Shown here: in pieces, positions 14,639-23,708 of the stretch
Layout: each line of letters begins with the position of its first letter
Numbering within the stretch: position 1 is the stretch's first letter
IMG/VR virus record: IMGVR_UViG_2778261380_000007
Location: 1 to 29,228 of that record
Strand: one strand, 5' to 3'
Source: a virus
Lineage: Duplodnaviria > Heunggongvirae > Uroviricota > Caudoviricetes
DNA length: 29,228 nucleotides
Notes under the pieces: generated by a model
What the model was told of the DNA's origin: nothing
What the model saw: only the letters and a program-made list of their open reading frames with translations
Databases searched by the model: none
Made by a program: the position numbers and the translations under genes

Positions 14639-16807
14639 TTATTGAGGTGTCTCGGCTACTCCGCCGGAGGGGATTTGAACTTGACGCATAAGATTCGCGA
14701 AATCCATGCGTTGTGAATGAGTCTGGTCTGCATCTTTAAGAAGCAGCTCAGCGTTAGCACGAGCATCTTTGCTGCGCTGTTGCTGGAATTGACCTACGAG
14801 CTTGAGGTACTCACGCAGTTCTGCCTGCTTGTCGAGGTCCATATTGTTGAATATTTCTGCAATCTTCGCGGCGTTGAGTTGGTTTTGGGCTTCAACCTTG
14901 GCGGCTTCAACCTGAATCTGCGCCTGTTGGTTCTCTGCCTTGAGCAATTCAGCCTGACCTTGCAGAAGGATACCCTGCGCCTGAATTTGCTCTGCTGATG
15001 GCTGCTGCGGCTGTTGTTGTGCCTGCTGTACCATCTCCATCTCTTCAGGTGTTTCTGGTTTCTTCAGCCCCATCATCACCAGTTGCTTGTTCGCGTACTC
15101 TCGCATCATCTCGACGCCTTTACCGTCAAGCAGCGTGAAGTATTGCAGCATCAGCATCTGGAACTCTGGAGTACCTTGCGGAACCTTGGTGAGTAACTCC
15201 TGAATCTCTGCGCGGTTCTGTTCCTTCATGCTCTGGAAGGATGGCCCAACGTCCGTATAGCACTCATATCGACCACGAATGTCGTTGAGTGTGACCACAT
15301 TGCCGGACTGGTAATCGACAACTTGCGCATAGAGTTGAACGTCTTTCTCGCTTCCATCTTCAAGTGTCAGCGTTACATGACGAGGAACGTCATAAATATC
15401 GTTGACCATTGAGGCATAAATCTCGCCATCACGTCGCATTGCGGTAGCCAGGTTATCCTGAAACACGTATGTCTCAAGGTCTGCCCGCATGTTCAGTTGG
15501 TTGACGGTATCGAAAGCGACCTGACCATTTGCCGCCTGCGCATCCACGCCAAGACTAGCCACCTCTTTCACTGCGTTGGTGGCAGCCTCAAGCATGTAAG
15601 CGTTGGCTTGCGGCACTTCAGGGTTTTCCATGTAGGAGATTGGACCAATCGGCAGGTCGTTACCGTTTTCATCGGTCCTGTTCTGCAGATAGTACGGATA
15701 GTCATCATTTCCACCGTACATGTATTCGTAGCCTTCGATTTGCTCAGGGAAGAAGGTCGGTTTCTTCTTCGGTGAACGAGCAACAATATCGGCGTTGAAC
15801 GACATGATCATGTTACGAAGGCGTTGACCGTCTTTCGTCAGCCTTACCACTCCTTCGTAGCACTCCTTGTCACCAGCGAATGACCATTCGCCATACACTG
15901 GAACGATTGGAATATGCTCTCCGGCTATCTTCTCGCGGTCTTTCAGTATCTGCGTGCAGGTGATGATCGACTTATACACACGCCGACGCTTGACCTTACG
16001 CTCTGCTACCTTAATGAATCCACGATTAGCCAGGTCGTCGATGACGTCTTTGATATCCTGCTGGTAATAGCTGACCGGCTCACCTGTCAGCGGGTCGCGG
16101 TAGATGAAGACTTTCTCTTTCTTCTCTTCGACCTCGTAATACTCAGCGACGTAGACGACATCATTCGATACCCACGGAAACAGCCATGTATCGTTCGGAT
16201 TCTGGAAAGATGGCAAGGTGTCAGGATCAATACCGTAATCCTCTGCGAACTCTTTCCAGCCATTGCGTGACAAAGCGTTAATCACCGTGCAGTGCTTAGC
16301 GTCGCTCTTATCCATCTGCTTGCTGTTGGCGTCCCATATGACGTGTGAGCAGGCTTCATGGATTGGCAGGCGTCGGATTACCTGATTGTTGCTTGTTGGG
16401 TCGTTGTCTTCGTACTGTGTGACCAGACGCCATGCACCAACGCCGGACTCTATCTGCTCACGAACGCCAACGTTAACGGCAATCTTTGCCGTGTTATGGC
16501 GCATATCAGTACGATACATTCCCATCAACACATCGGCAGCATCAGGATTAGCGCCGTCTTTGGGTCGGAAGAGAACGTCGATAGGGTTCCGGCGCATCTC
16601 TGCGACCAGTTTCCTGACCACCGGGCGAACAACATCGAATTGTCCGCGATATTGCAGGGTAGTGTAGTTTGATAGCCAGTCATCCCATTGCGACACTCGG
16701 CTAAAATACAGGTCATTTGTCGCCTCGGTTCTGGCCTCATCGCTTGCTGCCCAATCCCTGTCAAACCGAAGGAGAATGGTTCGCAATTTGTCGTCTTGGT
16801 CGGCCAT
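14639..16807 (-). CDS. Portal protein, P22 gp1 homolog
   Basis: 722-aa ORF; [26 protein letters not shown]...[16 protein letters not shown] matches the P22 portal sequence from memory, including the long helical C-terminal barrel. Confidence 0.95.
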
Positions 16808-18267
16808 TATCTACCTCTGGAAATTGGACGAATTGGAGCCGGTAATGGCTTAGTTGGTTTGTTTTTGACTACCGGGAATGCAAACGTCAGGGCTAACGCA
16901 TCAGCGCGGTTTGGTGAAGGAACCCCACGGCGCTTCATGTCATCTTTGGCCTCAAGGACGATGCGCCCATCGAGCTTAACCCTGTACTCAGGAGCAACGA
17001 TTTCGTCAGCTGTTTGCTGATCATCGATACTTCCCCCTTCTTTGAGCCATGACTTCATTGAGTTCCACATCTCACCGCGCTTGTTCAGCATGCCGGGGTC
17101 TTTGGATTCACCCCCAAAGTTAACCAGCTGCCACTTCCTTCCCCACGACCTACCTATTGAGTGAATTCCGGTGCCATACCCGAAGTCTATGAACACTGCA
17201 TCTGCCTTATGCTCATCCTCAAATCCTGCGACGATTTGCGCGAACTTAACGTCGTCATCTGTTTTCGGGTAGGTGCCAAGCAGGCGCGCATGAAGACCCT
17301 GGCGAAGGTAAATTGATGCCTCATCACTACCTGTGTAAGCAGGGTCAACGCCGATTATTTTGGATGCGAATGTGTAAGAGCCGGGTTCAAGCGTGCGAGA
17401 CATGGCCTCATCCACATATGCCTGAGGTATGAACTGGACTTCTGATGTCGATGGGAATAGACCGCGAACACGTACTTTAAAGAAATCGCTGTCTTCACCG
17501 TAATCCTTGCGCCACTCTTCGATGAGCTCTTTGTTGGTCATCTTTGCCAGGCGGCTATCAATTTGACGTCGACGCCATCGGTGTTTGAACTTGCGGAAGC
17601 ACTCTCGGAATCGACCGGTGTTACGCGTCGGGTTCCCAAATGCAAACCAGAAAGGCTCGCCGTCAGTAAGGCCGCCCTCTGCTACTTCCCAAATTTTGTC
17701 AGGAACCGCTGAGGCTTCATCGAAGATGTAGAACGGGCTTGAGTTAGCTGCATGCAGGCCAGCAAATGACTCGCTGTTCTCTTCCCGACACGTCTGGCCG
17801 TCACAGCGCCATGATTCCATGTGATCCACATGGTAGATGTTCATGTTGCCTTTGCCGTTGTTGTACTCAAACCAGTGACCGGTGATGCACCGCTTCTTCC
17901 ACTTGCCCAGCTCGCCCCATGTTTTGGTGCGAAGCTGTTCAGAGGTATTGGCTGTCACGACGCCCTTGCAGAAAGGACGAGTGCTGAGGATGTACAGAAT
18001 GACCCAGGCAGTTAGAGCACTTTTACCGATACCGTGACCAGAGCTGGTAGCGCAACGATAGGCTTCAACAGGTTTAACACCGTCGAAGTTATTAGTCCTG
18101 ATTGCGTCTCCCCAATCTGTCAGAAACTCTTTCTGCCATTCATCGGGGCCGTCAAAGCCCTCAAGCTCACCAGTTCCCCAATCAAACGCATACATAACGA
18201 AGCCAAGCGGATCGTAAAAGAATCGACCCATATCATCGGCAAGCATTGCCTCGAATTCTGACGACAT
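16807..18267 (-). CDS. Terminase large subunit
   Basis: 486-aa ORF immediately downstream of the small terminase; nucleotide-binding-like motif [14 protein letters not shown]; conserved gene order. Confidence 0.9.
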
Positions 18268-18704
18268 TACTCACCTCTCGCGCGTTTTCTGGCCTCCTGA
18301 ATGCGCTGAATCAGGTTAACCTCTCCGGTGTGTTCAACTTCTTGCTTATCGCGCCATTTATCCTTCTGTCGGTTCTTAAGCCAGAAGATGGCGGCCGTTG
18401 TATCAGGCGGGTAATACTTCTCAAGCGGAGTTTCGACAATTCTGTTTTCAATAACACGAATATCGATGTCTGGAGCCACGAAGCCCATAGCGCGTTGATA
18501 AAGACGATCACTAACTTCTGCATCAGCGACGGCCTTACCCTTTTTTATGGACTCCGAAAACTCAGGATAATCAAGCTTCCACTTGTTAATAGTTGACTCA
18601 CTGACTTCGAAGAAATCAGCAAGCTCTGCATCGGTGTAGCCCAGCAAGCACAGTTTGCGTGCCTGTTCGGCGTACGCCTCTTGATACTTTGTTGGGCGCG
18701 CCAT
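18267..18704 (-). CDS. Terminase small subunit
   Basis: 145-aa ORF; HTH-like N-terminus (GYTDAELADFFEVSESTINKWK) typical of small terminases; overlaps the TerL start by 1 nt. Confidence 0.8.
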   Translation of the reverse strand: MARPTKYQEAYAEQARKLCLLGYTDAELADFFEVSESTINKWKLDYPEFSESIKKGKAVADAEVSDRLYQRAMGFVAPDIDIRVIENRIVETPLEKYYPPDTTAAIFWLKNRQKDKWRDKQEVEHTGEVNLIQRIQEARKRARGE

Positions 18705-18706
18705 GT

Positions 18707-18949
18707 TTATGCTCCGGTAGTGAACAGGTCTAACGCTTCCTTCGATTTACGCACTGCTTCGAATGTGCGGATCGTGATATCCGAATTAGCGCCGCCTGAC
18801 TGGAAGTGAATTTTGAATAGCTCAAGCTTCAGTTCGTCAGTGCCAATGAACTGAAATGCTTCCTCTGCGGCTGCGTTCTGGTTCATGACCAGTTTGTAAA
18901 TCTCTAGCTGGAATTTCTGTTCTTCAGTCATGGGAATAATCTCTGCCAT
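18707..18949 (-). CDS. Hypothetical protein (80 aa)
   Basis: ORF ending 2 nt before the TerS start; no recognised motif. Confidence 0.5.
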   Translation of the reverse strand: MAEIIPMTEEQKFQLEIYKLVMNQNAAAEEAFQFIGTDELKLELFKIHFQSGGANSDITIRTFEAVRKSKEALDLFTTGA

Positions 18950-19052
18950 TGTTGGCTCCGTTTATCCGTTAAAAGGGATATCAGTTAAGTTATCCCGTGT
19001 AGGGTATAAGCCATTATCAAAGCCATTCTGTAGGGAATGGCTTTTGTAATAA

Positions 19053-19409
19053 CTACTGTTCGCTTAGCTTCTGCTTCAGCAAGTAACCTTCGAGCATCCA
19101 GATTTTGTTTACAGCATTCTGCCGGGCAATCTTCCGACCAATTTCTGCATCAAAGTTTTCCGGGCTTGCACAGGCACTCTCTCCGGTGACGGTGAAGCCA
19201 TTCTTCAGCACCAGTACGCAGAAAGTCAGGAGGTCTGTAGATTTATGCGCTGTCCATGAATCGCCAACGCCCATATTGGCAGCACGAATGCCGTCATAAG
19301 CAGTAAAGAAATGCTCTTCAAGAATGATGCTTTCGATATATTGAGGCGTAACTCGCGGAGCGGTTTTTCCTTTCTCAACGATTTCTTTTTCGATTTGCTG
19401 GTCGTTCAT
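19053..19409 (-). CDS. Hypothetical protein, N4 gp49 / Sf6 gp66-like
   Basis: 118-aa ORF; pattern LLTFCVLVLKNGFTVTGESACASPENFD recalled as this phage family. Function unknown. Confidence 0.6.
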   Translation of the reverse strand: MNDQQIEKEIVEKGKTAPRVTPQYIESIILEEHFFTAYDGIRAANMGVGDSWTAHKSTDLLTFCVLVLKNGFTVTGESACASPENFDAEIGRKIARQNAVNKIWMLEGYLLKQKLSEQ

Positions 19410-19635
19410 AATTATGACCCTGTGGAGTGGTTGCTTGATTAGGATGTCTTTCCATCAGTCCGCCACCACAAAGAATCTTTTTTGCCATAAGGCAGGAGGT
19501 TCATCTTTCAGTGGCTGCCAGTGTTATTTCCCCACTTACTGGCTTGGGTTGTATCGCTGTACTGCCGTTAATTAGTGACCAGAAATTAACTCCGGTTTCA
19601 TTATCAAGCCCACCCGTAGGTAGGCTTTGTAATGG

Positions 19636-19893
19636 CTACTTCGCTTTTGCTTCCGCTCGCTTACGCCGGCGCTCTTCTTTCCTCTCGGCTTTTGCCATGT
19701 CCATGAATGCCTGCATGATCGAGTTCCGCATCATGTAGCTAACAAAGTGATGATTGACACAGCCGTTGAGGCGCAGCTGCTCGCCAAACTCATCCACCGA
19801 GGCCAATGCTTCCATCATGCCCTTCTCGCCTTTCATGAACTCTGAGAAGTCGCGCCCCGCTCTGGAGGCGCATTCAATGACACGATCACTCAT
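19636..19893 (-). CDS. Hypothetical protein (85 aa) with basic C-terminal tail
   Basis: Start ATG overlaps the stop of the KilA-N gene (ATGA), suggesting translational coupling; C-terminus AKAERKEERRRKRAEAKAK. Confidence 0.55.
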   Translation of the reverse strand: MSDRVIECASRAGRDFSEFMKGEKGMMEALASVDEFGEQLRLNGCVNHHFVSYMMRNSIMQAFMDMAKAERKEERRRKRAEAKAK

Positions 19894-20387
19894 CCCGGAA
19901 GCCCGGGGATCGTAATCTGCAGCTGGTTAGCCAGGGAGTTAATCTCAGCGACCAACACTGGCTTCGTATAGCGCCATGCCGCCAGTCCTTGTCCGCAGAA
20001 GCTCGCCATGTCTTTCTTCTGGTCAAACTCATGACATTTCATGTTGAGCTGCGCACTTAAGCTGTTGCGATGCTGAAGTTCTCCGGTGAAGTAGTCATCG
20101 AGGACTTTATAGGCCGCGTACTTGAACCCGGGGTTTAACCAAGCCGCATAATCGTAAGCAACAAACTTCCCGCCATATGTTCCACCGTGTACACCGCGCT
20201 CAGTAAAAACCACAGATTCGTGGTTTTTCTCCAGCTCGGCTAAGAACTCTTTGGTCTGCTTGTTTCGCAGGTAGTGGTACGGAGATTCAGATTCACTTTT
20301 ACCACTGGCTTTCCACATATCAGTGAGGCAGATCATGCCATCTTCACCGATACGAATTGGTTGATTGAAGAGGGTTAATGATTTCAT
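19890..20387 (-). CDS. KilA-N domain protein
   Basis: 165-aa ORF; segment GVHGGTYGGKFVAYDYAAWLNPGFKYAAYKVLDDYF fits the KilA-N DNA-binding domain signature (from memory). Confidence 0.7.
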   Translation of the reverse strand: MKSLTLFNQPIRIGEDGMICLTDMWKASGKSESESPYHYLRNKQTKEFLAELEKNHESVVFTERGVHGGTYGGKFVAYDYAAWLNPGFKYAAYKVLDDYFTGELQHRNSLSAQLNMKCHEFDQKKDMASFCGQGLAAWRYTKPVLVAEINSLANQLQITIPGLPG

Positions 20388-20501
20388 AGCGTGTACCTAC
20401 TCTTTGAAATGAACCTTTGCCGCACAGGAAACCAGCCCACCGAGGCTCGCCAGCACTAACTGGTATCCTCAAAGGCCCATTCCAAAGGGGCAGGTTCGGT
20501 G

Positions 20502-20526
20502 TAAAAACATGCGTTGCGGTACGCAT
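20502..20526 (-). terminator. Terminator hairpin downstream of Rz (second of two in tandem)
   Basis: - strand: AUGCGU-loop-ACGCAU followed by a GUUUUUAC tract. Confidence 0.6.
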
Positions 20527-20533
20527 TTATTGC

Positions 20534-20555
20534 AAAAAGCCCCGCATCGCGAGGC
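20534..20555 (-). terminator. Terminator hairpin downstream of Rz (first of two in tandem)
   Basis: - strand: GCCUCGC-GAU-GCGGGGC (one G-U pair) followed by UUUUU. Confidence 0.65.
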
Positions 20556-20587
20556 TCATTAAATTGACTTTGTGATTTGCAAAAAAA

Positions 20588-21025
20588 TTATTTCAGGCAC
20601 TGAGTCCTGATGTACTCCTGCAGGTAGTTAACCTGCGCGGTTATCTTGTCGATTCCACTTCGGAGACGGTAATAATTGAGTTCAGCATCTGCTGTAAGTC
20701 TTGGGCTTTCTCCATCGCCCATGCTGCTGGCTCCGGTCGTTGACTTTGCACAGGTGGCGGCGACTTGCAGGCGCTTACGCCCAGCAGAAACATCAGCACG
20801 AAGGCTTTCGATAGTAGCGTTAGCATCAGCAAGCTCCTTTGTGTATCTGGCGTCGAGTTCTGCTACATCACGTTGACGCTTCTGCATATCAGCGATGATG
20901 GATGTGGCTTTGTCGCGCTGGTCTTTATAGGCGATGGCGTTATCACGGTAATGATTAACCGCCCATGAAAGGCAGACGATGACGCAGATAACCAGAGCGG
21001 AAATAATCGCGGTTACTCTGCTCAT
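20588..21025 (-). CDS. Rz: Spanin inner-membrane subunit (i-spanin)
   Basis: 145-aa ORF; N-terminus [31 protein letters not shown] is nearly identical to lambda Rz as I recall it. Confidence 0.9.
20641..20832 (-). CDS. Rz1: Spanin outer-membrane lipoprotein subunit (o-spanin), embedded in the +1 frame of Rz
   Basis: 63-aa ORF wholly inside Rz; signal peptide with lipobox (LLGVSAC) followed by a Pro-rich segment ([16 protein letters not shown]), as in lambda Rz1. Confidence 0.85.
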
Positions 21026-21498
21026 ACCTCAATCTCTCTGACCGTTCCGCCAGCCTCTTTGAATTTTGCAATCAGGCTGTCAACCTTATGCTCGAACTGA
21101 CCGTAACCGGCCCCCGGCAGTGAAGCCCAGATATTACTGCAACGGTCGATTGCCTGACGGATATCACCGCGATCAATCATCGGTAAAGCGCCACGTTCCT
21201 TAATCTGTTGCAGTGCCACAGCGTCCTGGCTTTTCGGAGAGAAGTCTTTCAGGCCAAGCTGCTTACGATAGGCATCCCACCAACGGGAAAGAAGCTGGTA
21301 GCGTCCAGCGGCTGTTGATTTGAGTTTGGGGTTTAGCGTGACAAGTTTGCGAGGGTGATCGGAGTAATCAGTGAATAGCTCACCACCTACAATGACGTCA
21401 TAACCATGATTTCTGGTTTTCTGCCGTCCGTTATCAGTTCCCTCTGACCACGCCAGCATATCGAGGAACGCCTTACGTTGATTATTGATTTCCACCAT
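21022..21498 (-). CDS. R: Endolysin, lambda R-type lytic transglycosylase
   Basis: 158-aa ORF, essentially identical to lambda R from memory ([35 protein letters not shown]...). Confidence 0.95.
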
Positions 21499-21805
21499 CT
21501 TCTACTCCGGCTTTTTTAGCAGCGAAGCGTTTGATAAGCGAACCAATCGAGTCAGTACCGATGTAGCCGATAAACACGCTCGTTATATAAGCGAGGTTGC
21601 TACTTAGTCCGGCGAAGTCGAGAAGGTCACGAATGAACCAGGCGATAATGGCGCACATCGTTGCGTCGATTACTGTTTTTGTAAACGCACCGCCATTATA
21701 TCTGCCGCGAAGGTACGCCATTGCAAACGCAAGTATTGCCCCGATGCCTTGTTCCTTTGCCGCGAGAATGGCGGCTAACAGGTCATGTTTTTCTGGCATC
21801 TTCAT
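21482..21805 (-). CDS. S: Holin/antiholin, lambda S (S107/S105 dual start)
   Basis: 107-aa ORF, identical to lambda S from memory, starting [10 protein letters not shown] with the Met1-Lys2-Met3 dual-start motif; upstream DNA matches the lambda S leader. Confidence 0.95.
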
Positions 21806-22238: not shown

Positions 22239-22862
22239 CTAACGTGTGACCGCATTCAAAATGTTGTCTGCGATTGACTCTTCTTTGTGGCATTGCACCA
22301 CCAGAGCGTCATACAGCGGCTTAACAGTGCGTGACCAGGTGGGTTGAGTAAGGTTTGGGATTAGCATCGTTACAGCGCGATATGCGGCGCTTGCTGGCAT
22401 CCTGGAATAGCCGACTCCTTTGCATCTTCCGCACTCTTTCTCGACAACTCTCCCCCACTGCTCTGTTTTTGCTATATCAACCGCACGGCCTGTACCGTGG
22501 CAATCTCTGCACCTTGCTCCCGGCGTCGCGGCACTACGGCAATAATCCGCATAAGCGAATGTTGCGAGCACTTGCAGTACCTTTGCCTTAGTATTTCCTT
22601 CAAGCTTTGCCACGCCACGGTATTTCCCCGATACCTTGTGTGCAAATTGCATCAGATAGTTGATAGCCTTTTGTTTGTCGTTCTGGCTGAGTTCGTGCTT
22701 ACCACAGAATGCAGCCATTCCGAATCCGGCTTGTGATTGCGCCATCCCCATAGCAGCCATCACATCAGTACCGGAAAGAGAGTCAGAAGCCGTAGCCCGT
22801 GGTGAGTCGCTCATCATCGGGCTTTTTGGCGAATGAAATTTAGCTACGCTTTCGAGTCTCAT
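22239..22862 (-). CDS. Q: Late gene antiterminator Q (lambda-type)
   Basis: 207-aa ORF, essentially identical to lambda Q from memory, including the Cys-rich zinc-binding region (CRDCHGTG...CGRCKG). Confidence 0.95.
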
Positions 22863-23524
22863 GCGCCTTCTCCCTGTACCTGAATCAATGTGAGATTTCC
22901 GTAGAACACTGCGCCGGTATCGATATACATCTGGTTGGCAAACTTGAGTGGTTTCACTGCTGGCGTATGACCAAAGATGAACGTGTCCGCGCCTTTGATT
23001 TCTTTCACGATCCCGTCTTGTGAGTTGCTGATTCGTTCGCGGTTCCAGATTACCTGCTGATGATCAACTGGCTTACCAAACTCGTATTCGTCACAAGGAT
23101 AATCGGCGTGGCAGATGACATATTTTTTACCTTTGCTCACCAGTTCGATGATTAACGGAAGTTCATCTGCTTTATGGGCAAGAGCTTTAGCCAGAATTTC
23201 TTTGTCGTAATCGAGATTAAAGAACCAGCCACCGCCATTAAGCAACCAGTGATTGACGTTTCCACGCTCTGATAAGCCATCAATCATCATGTGCTCATGG
23301 TTTCCACGTACAGCTCTGAACCAGGGGAATGTGATTAATTCCAGGCATTCGACGTTCTCTGTACCGCGATCGACCAAATCGCCAACCGAGATAAGCAGGT
23401 CTTTTTTGGTGTCGAATCCTATCGTCTCCAGTTTTTCCATCAGGTTCGTGTAGCATCCGTGCAGATCGCCAACTACCCAAATATTTCGGTATTTGCTGCC
23501 ATCAATTCTTTCGTAATAGCGCAT
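22859..23524 (-). CDS. ninI: Ser/Thr protein phosphatase (lambda NinI / orf221)
   Basis: Start placed at ATG 23522-23524 ([25 protein letters not shown]...), giving 221 aa and matching lambda phosphatase motifs GDLHG, GDLVDRG, GNHE; the ORF-track start at 23599 is an upstream extension overlapping ninH. Confidence 0.9.
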
Positions 23525-23708
23525 CTCTTTCACTCCATCCGCGATGAACCATGAGAACGTCGTTGACGATGGCGTGCATTTTCCCGTCTTTATCATCAAC
23601 GTATTTTCTTACCGTACCGCGACTACATTTCAGTCTGCGTGCTACTTCTGTCTGGTTTCCGTATGCTTCAACGAGCATGTCTGGAATGGTTTTTACTGAG
23701 AACGTCAT
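23502..23708 (-). CDS. ninH: NinH
   Basis: 68-aa ORF identical in length and near-identical in sequence to lambda NinH from memory. Confidence 0.9.

Follow-up and report, generated by a model that had tools for sequence, protein, structure and literature searches.

A mosaic swap site between the lysis and terminase genes of a P22-like Escherichia coli prophage, with an Acb4-family gene and a KilA-N/HkbL gene pair

The interval between the Rz gene and the terminase small subunit gene (TerS) at 18,707-20,587 (minus strand) was analysed in a 29,228-nt stretch of viral DNA (IMG/VR record IMGVR_UViG_2778261380_000007), referred to here as the window. The window represents a P22-like prophage of E. 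coli, of the HK620/Sf6 type. The interval is composed of three independently assorting cassettes and not of one functional unit: a KilA-N gene coupled to an 85-aa gene (hkbK and hkbL), an acb4 homologue, and a DUF2560 gene. The cassettes are regarded as independent because the acb4 cassette is a clean indel, because the contents assort independently in 71 loci, and because the combination of all four genes is rare. The "island" of the first-pass annotation, which had been made from the sequence alone, thus does not hold as a unit.

Three cassettes between Rz and TerS

The acb4 cassette (19053-19442, minus strand) comprises a 33-nt leader and the acb4 open reading frame (ORF). Its junctions were placed by comparison with phages Dewey and HK620, relative to which it is a clean indel of ~390 bp (19054-19442). 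A total of 80 IMG/VR loci with an identical DUF2560 were fetched, and the 71 that had both Rz and DUF2560 were used. The distance between these two genes ranged from 308 to 2165 bp. The first slot (slot A) contained Rha-type genes, the KilA-N-CD3 gene (KilA-N plus ORF11CD3) with HkbL (3 loci), other KilA-N genes, other genes, or nothing. An HkbL-like domain fused to T5orf172/MUG113 was found there in 9 loci and a Tad2-like fusion in 4, and the slot was also seen filled by HNH, DUF551 and trypsin-like genes. Acb4 occupied the second slot (slot B) in 12 of the 71 loci, alongside every type of slot A, and the KilA-N+HkbL pair was seen both with and without it. Parts of the region were present in 3111 of 5426 complete E. 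coli genomes, and the four-gene combination in 5 of them.

Variable genes, conserved flanks, co-orientation and conserved linker bounds, which together define a lambdoid late-operon swap site, were all found here. The range of distances and the diverse contents bear out the earlier description of the interval as a variable moron site of lambdoid and P22-like phages. Among the E. coli assemblies searched, an identical 2.1-kb arrangement was found in three (two complete chromosomes and one contig record), such as CAVp367, and the identical 2.1 kb was also present in one IMG/VR contig. Because the arrangement recurs in other assemblies, the sequence of the interval is real and not an assembly artefact. 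The hairpins, the ATGA overlap, the gap, the gp49-like gene and the 80-aa ORF of the first-pass annotation were all located where it had placed them.

Genes of the interval

The 118-aa protein (19053-19409, minus strand) belongs to PF13876 (Phage_gp49_66/Acb4), which it matched at 1.7e-34 with 118.6 bits against a cutoff of 27. It is 100% identical to UniProt A0A0C5F232 of E. coli, an entry in the homologue list of Table S3 (10.1101/2024.12.30.630793). Its sole sequence match in PDB was 9E4W, Acb4 (E = 0.006). PF13876 is the Acb4 family, with 1,331 homologues in that table. The Acb4 of Bacillus phage SPO1, the founding member (PDB 9E4W), is a tetrameric sponge that sequesters 3'3'-cyclic GMP-AMP (cGAMP) and related signals of the cyclic oligonucleotide-based antiphage signalling system (CBASS) and rescues the phage. 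Its fold resembles the dsRBD, a domain that binds double-stranded RNA (dsRNA). All eight purified homologues (8/8) bound 3'3'-cGAMP; those from phages of Gram-negative hosts also bound cyclic di-AMP (c-di-AMP), and a different specificity has been reported for them (10.1101/2024.12.30.630793). The Acb4 of coliphage N4 acts as a sponge in vivo in E. coli and triggers Panoptes (PMC12657230). The N4 member is the source of the family name, and an N4-like homologue aligned with the 118-aa protein at 39% identity.

The SPO1 contact residues K36, F48, E49, V56, Y57, F62, N63, I66, T70 and K81 were examined in the alignment. The stacking residue F48 (F72 in the window protein), the adenine-pocket residues F62 and I66 (F86 and I90) and the invariant G67 (G91) are kept, and N63, a backbone contact, corresponds to D. 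We predict with moderate to high confidence that the 118-aa protein is a cyclic-dinucleotide sponge. Current RefSeq annotation gives its gene no name beyond "Gp49 family protein". The label "gp49/gp66-like" of the first-pass annotation was right about the family and missed the identity with the Acb4 anti-CBASS sponges.

A second sponge family was found in slot A of phage Huey (L006). The gene at 1096-1596 encodes 166 aa, with a Tad2-like domain (PF11195, 1.7e-24) at the C-terminus and an unassigned domain at the N-terminus. Behind it come the same linker and an Acb4 homologue (1831-2211). PF11195 (Tad2) is a family of anti-Thoeris sponges. Both Huey genes are annotated as "anti-CRISPR protein" in the record. 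By eye, and unscored, the N-terminal domain of the Tad2-like protein resembles one that a Clostridium protein of Table S3 carries fused to Acb4.

The 165-aa protein of slot A (19890-20387, minus strand) corresponds to HkbK of HK620. It carries KilA-N at residues 9-101 (1.3e-15) and ORF11CD3 at residues 109-161 (2.4e-13) in Pfam, and it matched phrog_129 "transcriptional regulator" at 2.7e-61. An N-terminal KilA-N joined to a shuffled C-terminal network domain, here ORF11CD3, is the architecture of the Bro network, and by its domains the protein is classed as a Bro-network DNA-binding protein. No Pfam match was found to an ANT or P22_AR C-terminal domain, a mark of phage antirepressors; PHROG "anti-repressor" matches were weak and ran through the CD3 region. 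A PDB sequence search with the protein gave no significant match. P22 Rha combines Phage_pRha with ORF11CD3 and lies in the same slot behind the same leader. The window protein thus matches P22 Rha in position and in its C-terminal domain, whereas another DNA-binding domain has taken the N-terminal place. At the DNA level the window genes share ~97% identity with hkbK, hkbL and hkbM of HK620, a coliphage, and the KilA-N/85-aa pair has been described as hkbK/hkbL since 2001. Many Stx-converting and lambda-like phages also have this pair behind Rz. The first-pass annotation left the function of the KilA-N protein open and overlooked the earlier description of the pair.

HkbL (85 aa; 19636-19893, minus strand; phrog_875, 3.2e-54) starts within the end of the KilA-N gene. 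The two genes share 4 nt at the KilA-N stop codon (ggATGAgt, 19890-19893), in agreement with the tight coupling proposed earlier. The C-terminus of HkbL is KEERRRKRAEAKAK, and the tail there is basic. The AlphaFold2 (AF2) model, with a predicted local distance difference test score (pLDDT) of 92, has three helices, of which the long C-terminal one is basic. A fold search with HkbL against PDB and BFVD gave no match at E <= 0.001, and a PDB sequence search gave nothing significant. The family is very narrow: a search of 1.84 billion representatives gave only 21 proteins at E <= 0.001. Its named members are all from Enterobacterales.

Genomic context was sought for eight HkbL homologues, of which seven were retrieved and one was not on record. 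In all seven contexts (7/7) the homologue lay directly downstream of a Bro-network gene, with an overlap of 4-8 bp or a gap of 2 nt. The upstream gene encoded KilA-N+ORF11CD3, KilA-N+P63C, or Phage_pRha+ANT, the last in L092. These pairs occupied varied moron slots of the late region: after the lysis genes, within tail clusters, and in an immI-like cluster that also includes two Arc genes and an antirepressor of the Bro-N+P22_AR_C type. Domain fusions of HkbL were found to T5orf172/MUG113 domains only. Because of its constant position downstream of Bro-network genes and these exclusive fusions, HkbL appears to behave as a dedicated small partner of Bro-network proteins. No description of an obligate small downstream partner for the Bro network was found in the literature searched.

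The fusions are 161-179 aa long, with an N-terminal HkbL-like domain and a C-terminal T5orf172/MUG113 domain, and stand alone in the slot (L084, 3268-3753, and 8 others); P0223 and P0225 are also listed among them. Residues C8, C45, H48 and H49 of HkbL are invariant or nearly so (motifs ECASRAGRDFS and GCVNHHFV) and could form a metal site. In the T5orf172-fused relatives C8 is missing, and in some of them the His-His pair is missing too.

The third cassette encodes an 80-aa DUF2560 protein (18707-18949, minus strand; Pfam 2.6e-42), which corresponds to hkbM of HK620, ORF80 of P22 and gp67 of Sf6. Its stop codon is 2 nt from the TerS ATG (18704). Relatives were found in at least 574 stretches of IMG/VR. 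The AF2 model (pLDDT 78) has four helices; for this protein, a fold search against PDB gave no match at E <= 0.001 and a PDB sequence search gave nothing significant. Profile searches of the interval proteins, which the first-pass annotation had put forward as a check, matched KilA-N, ORF11CD3, PF13876 and DUF2560, with HkbL placed through phrog_875. An NCBIfam search gave no meaningful matches.

Linkers, hairpins and late transcription

The gap between hkbL and acb4 (19410-19635) is 226 bp long and has no conserved ORF, as the earlier estimate of a ~225-bp untranslated gap had it. Its core is a near-invariant non-coding element of 136 nt (19443-19578, minus strand; 23 variants aligned), which was matched in 196 phage records. 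The core lies downstream of rha in P22, gene 65 in Sf6, Rz in phage L and the Tad2-like gene in Huey. It is also present in HK022, HK620 and many IMG/VR contigs, whatever genes flank it, and is not specific to this island, a point that the first-pass annotation missed. That annotation had proposed to examine the gap for a promoter or small RNA; the core has no Rfam match, and the consensus scan gave no gene-strand promoter-like site in it. Two small ORFs in the gap (9 aa and 21 aa) were rejected as coding; frameshifts occur in L022 and L053, and ATG is changed to ATA in HK022. An origin of the gap as a remnant of the 3'-end of rha was also rejected: in P22 the match takes in only the last ~10 nt of rha, and the element itself is downstream of that gene.

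Hairpins of one covarying family are located directly after the stop codons at cassette ends. Type 1 in the window is ATTACAAAGCCTACC-TACG-GGTGGGCTTGATAATG (19599-19633, minus strand). Type 3, ATTACAAAAGCCATTC-CCTACA-GAATGGCTTTGATAATG (19012-19050, minus strand), coincides with inverted repeat I2 and direct repeats D6/D7. The shared pattern is ATT(A/G)CA-stem-loop-stem-GA(T/C)AATG, with no U tract after it. The hairpin set comprised 110 instances with 29 distinct sequences from the fetched loci, of which 28 distinct variants were aligned. Standard pairs were found in 97.4% of the hairpin cells, compared with 34-50% when the partner column was slid. Compensatory changes, affecting both sides, were seen in 7 of the 14 pairs. 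The covariation score was 0.40, compared with 0.22 in shuffles, and none of the 500 shuffles reached 0.40.

In the lambda-like PhiR49_1, hkbL is linked by a single cassette-end hairpin straight to the segment found ahead of DUF2560 in the window. This junction is the product expected of recombination within the linkers. In the Sf6 record this region already carries the annotation "boundary sequences". The hairpins and the near-invariant linkers probably provide the homology for module exchange.

Two tandem intrinsic-terminator-like hairpins were found by RNA fold after Rz (20503-20557, minus strand), as the first-pass annotation had reported. T1 (20557-20537, minus strand) is the stem-loop GAGCCUCGC-GAU-GCGGGGCUU followed by a U run. 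T2 (20526-20509, minus strand), AUGCGU-ACCGCA-ACGCAU followed by GUUUUU, was also found by the consensus scan. Both have the GC-rich hairpin and U tract of an intrinsic terminator and are predicted to act as such. In phage Dewey, T1 accompanies the Rz segment. A gene for an HNH endonuclease that also has an AP2-like domain (L001, 2099-2650) lies there between Rz/T1 and the KilA-N gene, and this insert takes the place of window positions 20393-20533, including T2 and the leader.

The conserved leader of the KilA-N gene (20395-20495, minus strand) is predicted to fold into an imperfect hairpin of ~100 nt. Its 3' arm covers, in the predicted fold, a Shine-Dalgarno (SD)-like GAGTAGG just 5' of the KilA-N ATG. 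The fold of the 211-nt region had an energy of -74.4 kcal/mol (z = -3.4). The ~110-nt leader is 95-100% identical to the leaders of P22 rha and of unrelated slot-A genes. The predicted fold suggests that the hairpin limits the translation of whichever gene fills slot A, and the leader could be a shared translational control element. A 60-aa ORF (20344-20526, minus strand) spans T2 and the leader and is almost certainly spurious; in another frame the same DNA is an N-terminal extension in the annotated P22 Rha.

All interval genes and the late genes are on the minus strand. The Q antiterminator (22239-22862; PF03589) is followed by a pR'-like promoter (22196-22168) and a tR'-like terminator (22134-22106), both from the consensus scan. 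Then come the holin (21482-21805) and endolysin (21022-21498) from gene calls, and Rz with an embedded Rz1 (20588-21025; PF03245). Beyond the interval lie TerS (18267-18704; gene call and PHROG), the terminase large subunit TerL (16807-18267; gene call) and a P22-type portal (14639-16807; portal match). The consensus scan found no gene-strand promoter-like site inside the island. Because Q is of the PF03589 type, the pR'-like promoter and tR' are present, and the island has no such internal site, expression of the island is presumed to be late only.

Other searches of the window gave little. Rfam, at the gathering threshold for the whole window and at E <= 1 for the island, returned one spurious snoRNA only (E = 0.19). 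No tRNA or tmRNA was found in the window, and the integration host factor (IHF) consensus WATCAANNNNTTR had no exact match across it. The base composition is unremarkable (42-57% GC). The ORF upstream of Q (22859-23599, minus strand) has GDLHGC...GNHE motifs and by eye resembles a lambda-type Ser/Thr phosphatase.

Explanations and known systems

The explanation that we hold to be probable, though well short of certain, is a recombinational swap site in the late operon with three independently acquired cassettes. The gene content, family membership, indel junctions, independent assortment and hairpin covariation are shown by the analysis; ligand binding by the Acb4 homologue, late-only expression and the roles of KilA-N/HkbL and of the hairpins are inferred. 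After induction or infection, Q-modified RNA polymerase from pR' would read through tR' and then T1/T2. The leader hairpin, by burying the SD sequence, would limit translation of KilA-N-CD3, and HkbL would be made by ATGA coupling. KilA-N-CD3 and HkbL may act together on DNA as a regulator or antirepressor-like factor. A late-expressed factor of this kind is the most likely role for the pair, and our confidence in it is low. With moderate to high confidence, Acb4 tetramers would bind the cyclic dinucleotides of CBASS, so that the host effector is not activated; the cost would be exposure to sponge-sensing systems such as Panoptes. DUF2560 would be a conserved small third cassette ahead of the terminase, and no role is proposed for it.

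Several points weigh against this explanation. The 71-locus sample is biased, as all its members share an identical DUF2560. The covariation comes from no more than about four independent hairpin types, and for this reason it supports, and does not prove, a conserved hairpin structure. The promoter scan used a crude consensus, and a weak internal promoter may be present in the island. The term "antirepressor-like" for KilA-N/HkbL derives from family membership and neighbourhood. In the 118-aa protein, the guanine-specific SPO1 residues K36 and E49 are replaced by L60 and T73, and the phosphate contacts Y57, T70 and K81 by A81, I94 and M105. With several SPO1 contacts replaced, the ligand specificity of the protein is not secure, whereas its fold and family are. 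A [KR]-x-x-[KR] motif (K93..R96) is also present in the stretch R-K-I-A-R (residues 92-96) at the start of the second helix. Those dsRBDs that bind dsRNA typically have this "KR motif", whereas it is missing in SPO1 Acb4 (10.64898/2026.07.21.739742).

The last point is the basis of a different reading of the 118-aa protein, in which it binds dsRNA, or dsRNA together with cyclic dinucleotides, and is not a pure sponge. The dsRBD-like fold of Acb4 is consistent with it, and so is the kept K93-x-x-R96, which opens the second helix and matches the KR motif that dsRNA binding requires. However, all eight purified PF13876 homologues, including those of Gram-negative phages, bound cGAMP; the Acb4 of N4, with a 39% identical N4-like homologue, is a sponge in vivo; and contact with the dinucleotide phosphates is an equally possible role for the basic residues. 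We consider this reading improbable. That all four genes form one co-functioning operon or system is scarcely credible: they are co-oriented, closely spaced and probably co-transcribed, but independent assortment, the clean acb4 indel and the rarity of the combination contradict it.

The KilA-N-CD3/HkbL pair admits further readings. It could be a counter-defence module in an interval that serves as an anti-signalling or anti-defence hot spot with alternative slot-A inhibitors, a view we consider doubtful. The Tad2-like fusion (PF11195) in slot A of Huey and of four IMG/VR loci, followed by the same linker and in Huey also by Acb4, points in this direction, as does an anti-signalling hot spot with Tad2, Acb4 and Sequestin in N4-like phages (10.64898/2026.06.04.730250). 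For the pair itself, however, the argument is guilt by association. KilA-N, Rha and T5orf172 are DNA-binding or nuclease-type domains and not sponges, slot A also takes HNH, DUF551 and trypsin-like genes, and KilA-N/HkbL had no match to an anti-defence family. A bolder form, equally doubtful in our judgement, takes the interval as a dedicated counter-defence hot spot and the pair as a new two-component module acting on host or competitor immunity or on prophage repression, with HkbL as a universal small adaptor of the Bro network because its domain is also fused to T5orf172 nuclease-like domains.

There is little to commend the view that the pair serves the prophage for defence or exclusion in the manner of BstA and abortive infection, or that it is a toxin of the Kil type accompanied by a small partner. 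The N-terminal domain of BstA is KilA-N-like (PMC8585504), the PADLOC candidate PDC-S22 gave a weak local match to the KilA-N protein (1.2e-8, residues 60-90 only), and the Rha proteins of P22 and phi80 are reported to prevent the growth of phages in hosts defective in IHF (summarised in PMC4936722). However, PADLOC gave no BstA model match at E <= 1, and the 165-aa protein lacks the BstA C-terminal region; it is not a BstA, in line with the earlier remark that it is much shorter. Its gene lies not beside cI but past two terminators within the late operon, where no promoter-like site was found; a late-only gene could not protect the lysogen. The repeat scan found no aba-like repeat within or upstream of the KilA-N gene, and the check for an embedded DNA element, proposed in the first-pass annotation, gave for this gene only short repeats at chance level.

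The swap site, the hkb genes and the Acb4 family were all already known, and the interval is ordinary phage mosaicism with no new kind of system. What is modestly new is the precise boundaries of the acb4 cassette, the joint use of the slot by sponges of the Tad2-like and Acb4 families, the constant pairing of HkbL with Bro-network genes, and the covarying cassette-end hairpins. The analysis assigns a likely anti-CBASS signal sequestration, on sequence grounds, to an E. coli prophage gene known as "Gp49 family protein". The lysis-terminase slot of temperate enterobacterial phages swaps immune-evasion sponges (Acb4, Tad2-like) with Bro-network regulators, and shared hairpin and linker sequences are probably used in this exchange. 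The slot is a concrete place to seek new counter-defence genes, with the HkbK/HkbL pair, DUF2560 and the T5orf172 fusions as candidates.

Among known loci, hkbK-hkbL-hkbM of HK620, genes 65-67 of Sf6 and the rha-ORF25-ORF80 region of P22 likewise lie between Rz and gene 3 and have linker elements and hairpins in common with the window. The HK620 locus lacks acb4. The Sf6 genes include acb4 (gene 66, 126 aa) and lack the KilA-N pair. In P22, Rha (pRha+ORF11CD3) stands in place of KilA-N+HkbL. The window lacks hkbN/ORF59C. The window protein and SPO1 Acb4 share the beta-core, the GxS...NF(D/N)xEIG motif, the stacking Phe, the hydrophobic adenine pocket and the nature of a small single-domain phage protein. 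They differ in length (118 and 96 aa), in an N-terminal extension and in a variable loop at residues ~40-59. Unlike SPO1 Acb4, the window protein keeps the KR motif, has its guanine-specific and phosphate contacts replaced, and is encoded in the late operon of a temperate phage.

Bro-network and KilA-N proteins, including P1 KilA, P22 Ant and Rha, were reportedly described by Iyer, Koonin and Aravind in 2002. As in that network, an N-terminal KilA-N is joined here to a shuffled C-terminal domain, and domain swapping is seen in the same slot; the window protein differs in lacking an ANT/KilA-C domain and in having HkbL as an obligate small downstream partner. BstA likewise is prophage-encoded with a KilA-N-type N-terminal domain. 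It lies next to cI, is expressed in lysogeny, is ~300 aa long with a conserved C-terminal region, and has a cognate aba repeat (PMC8585504), whereas the window protein is about half that length, lies in the late operon without an aba-like repeat, and is not expected to be expressed in lysogeny. The hot spot of N4-like phages (10.64898/2026.06.04.730250) is also a fixed slot that gathers Tad2 and Acb4 sponges in different phages. It belongs to another phage group with other flanks, whereas the slot in the window also takes Bro-network and homing-endonuclease-type genes.

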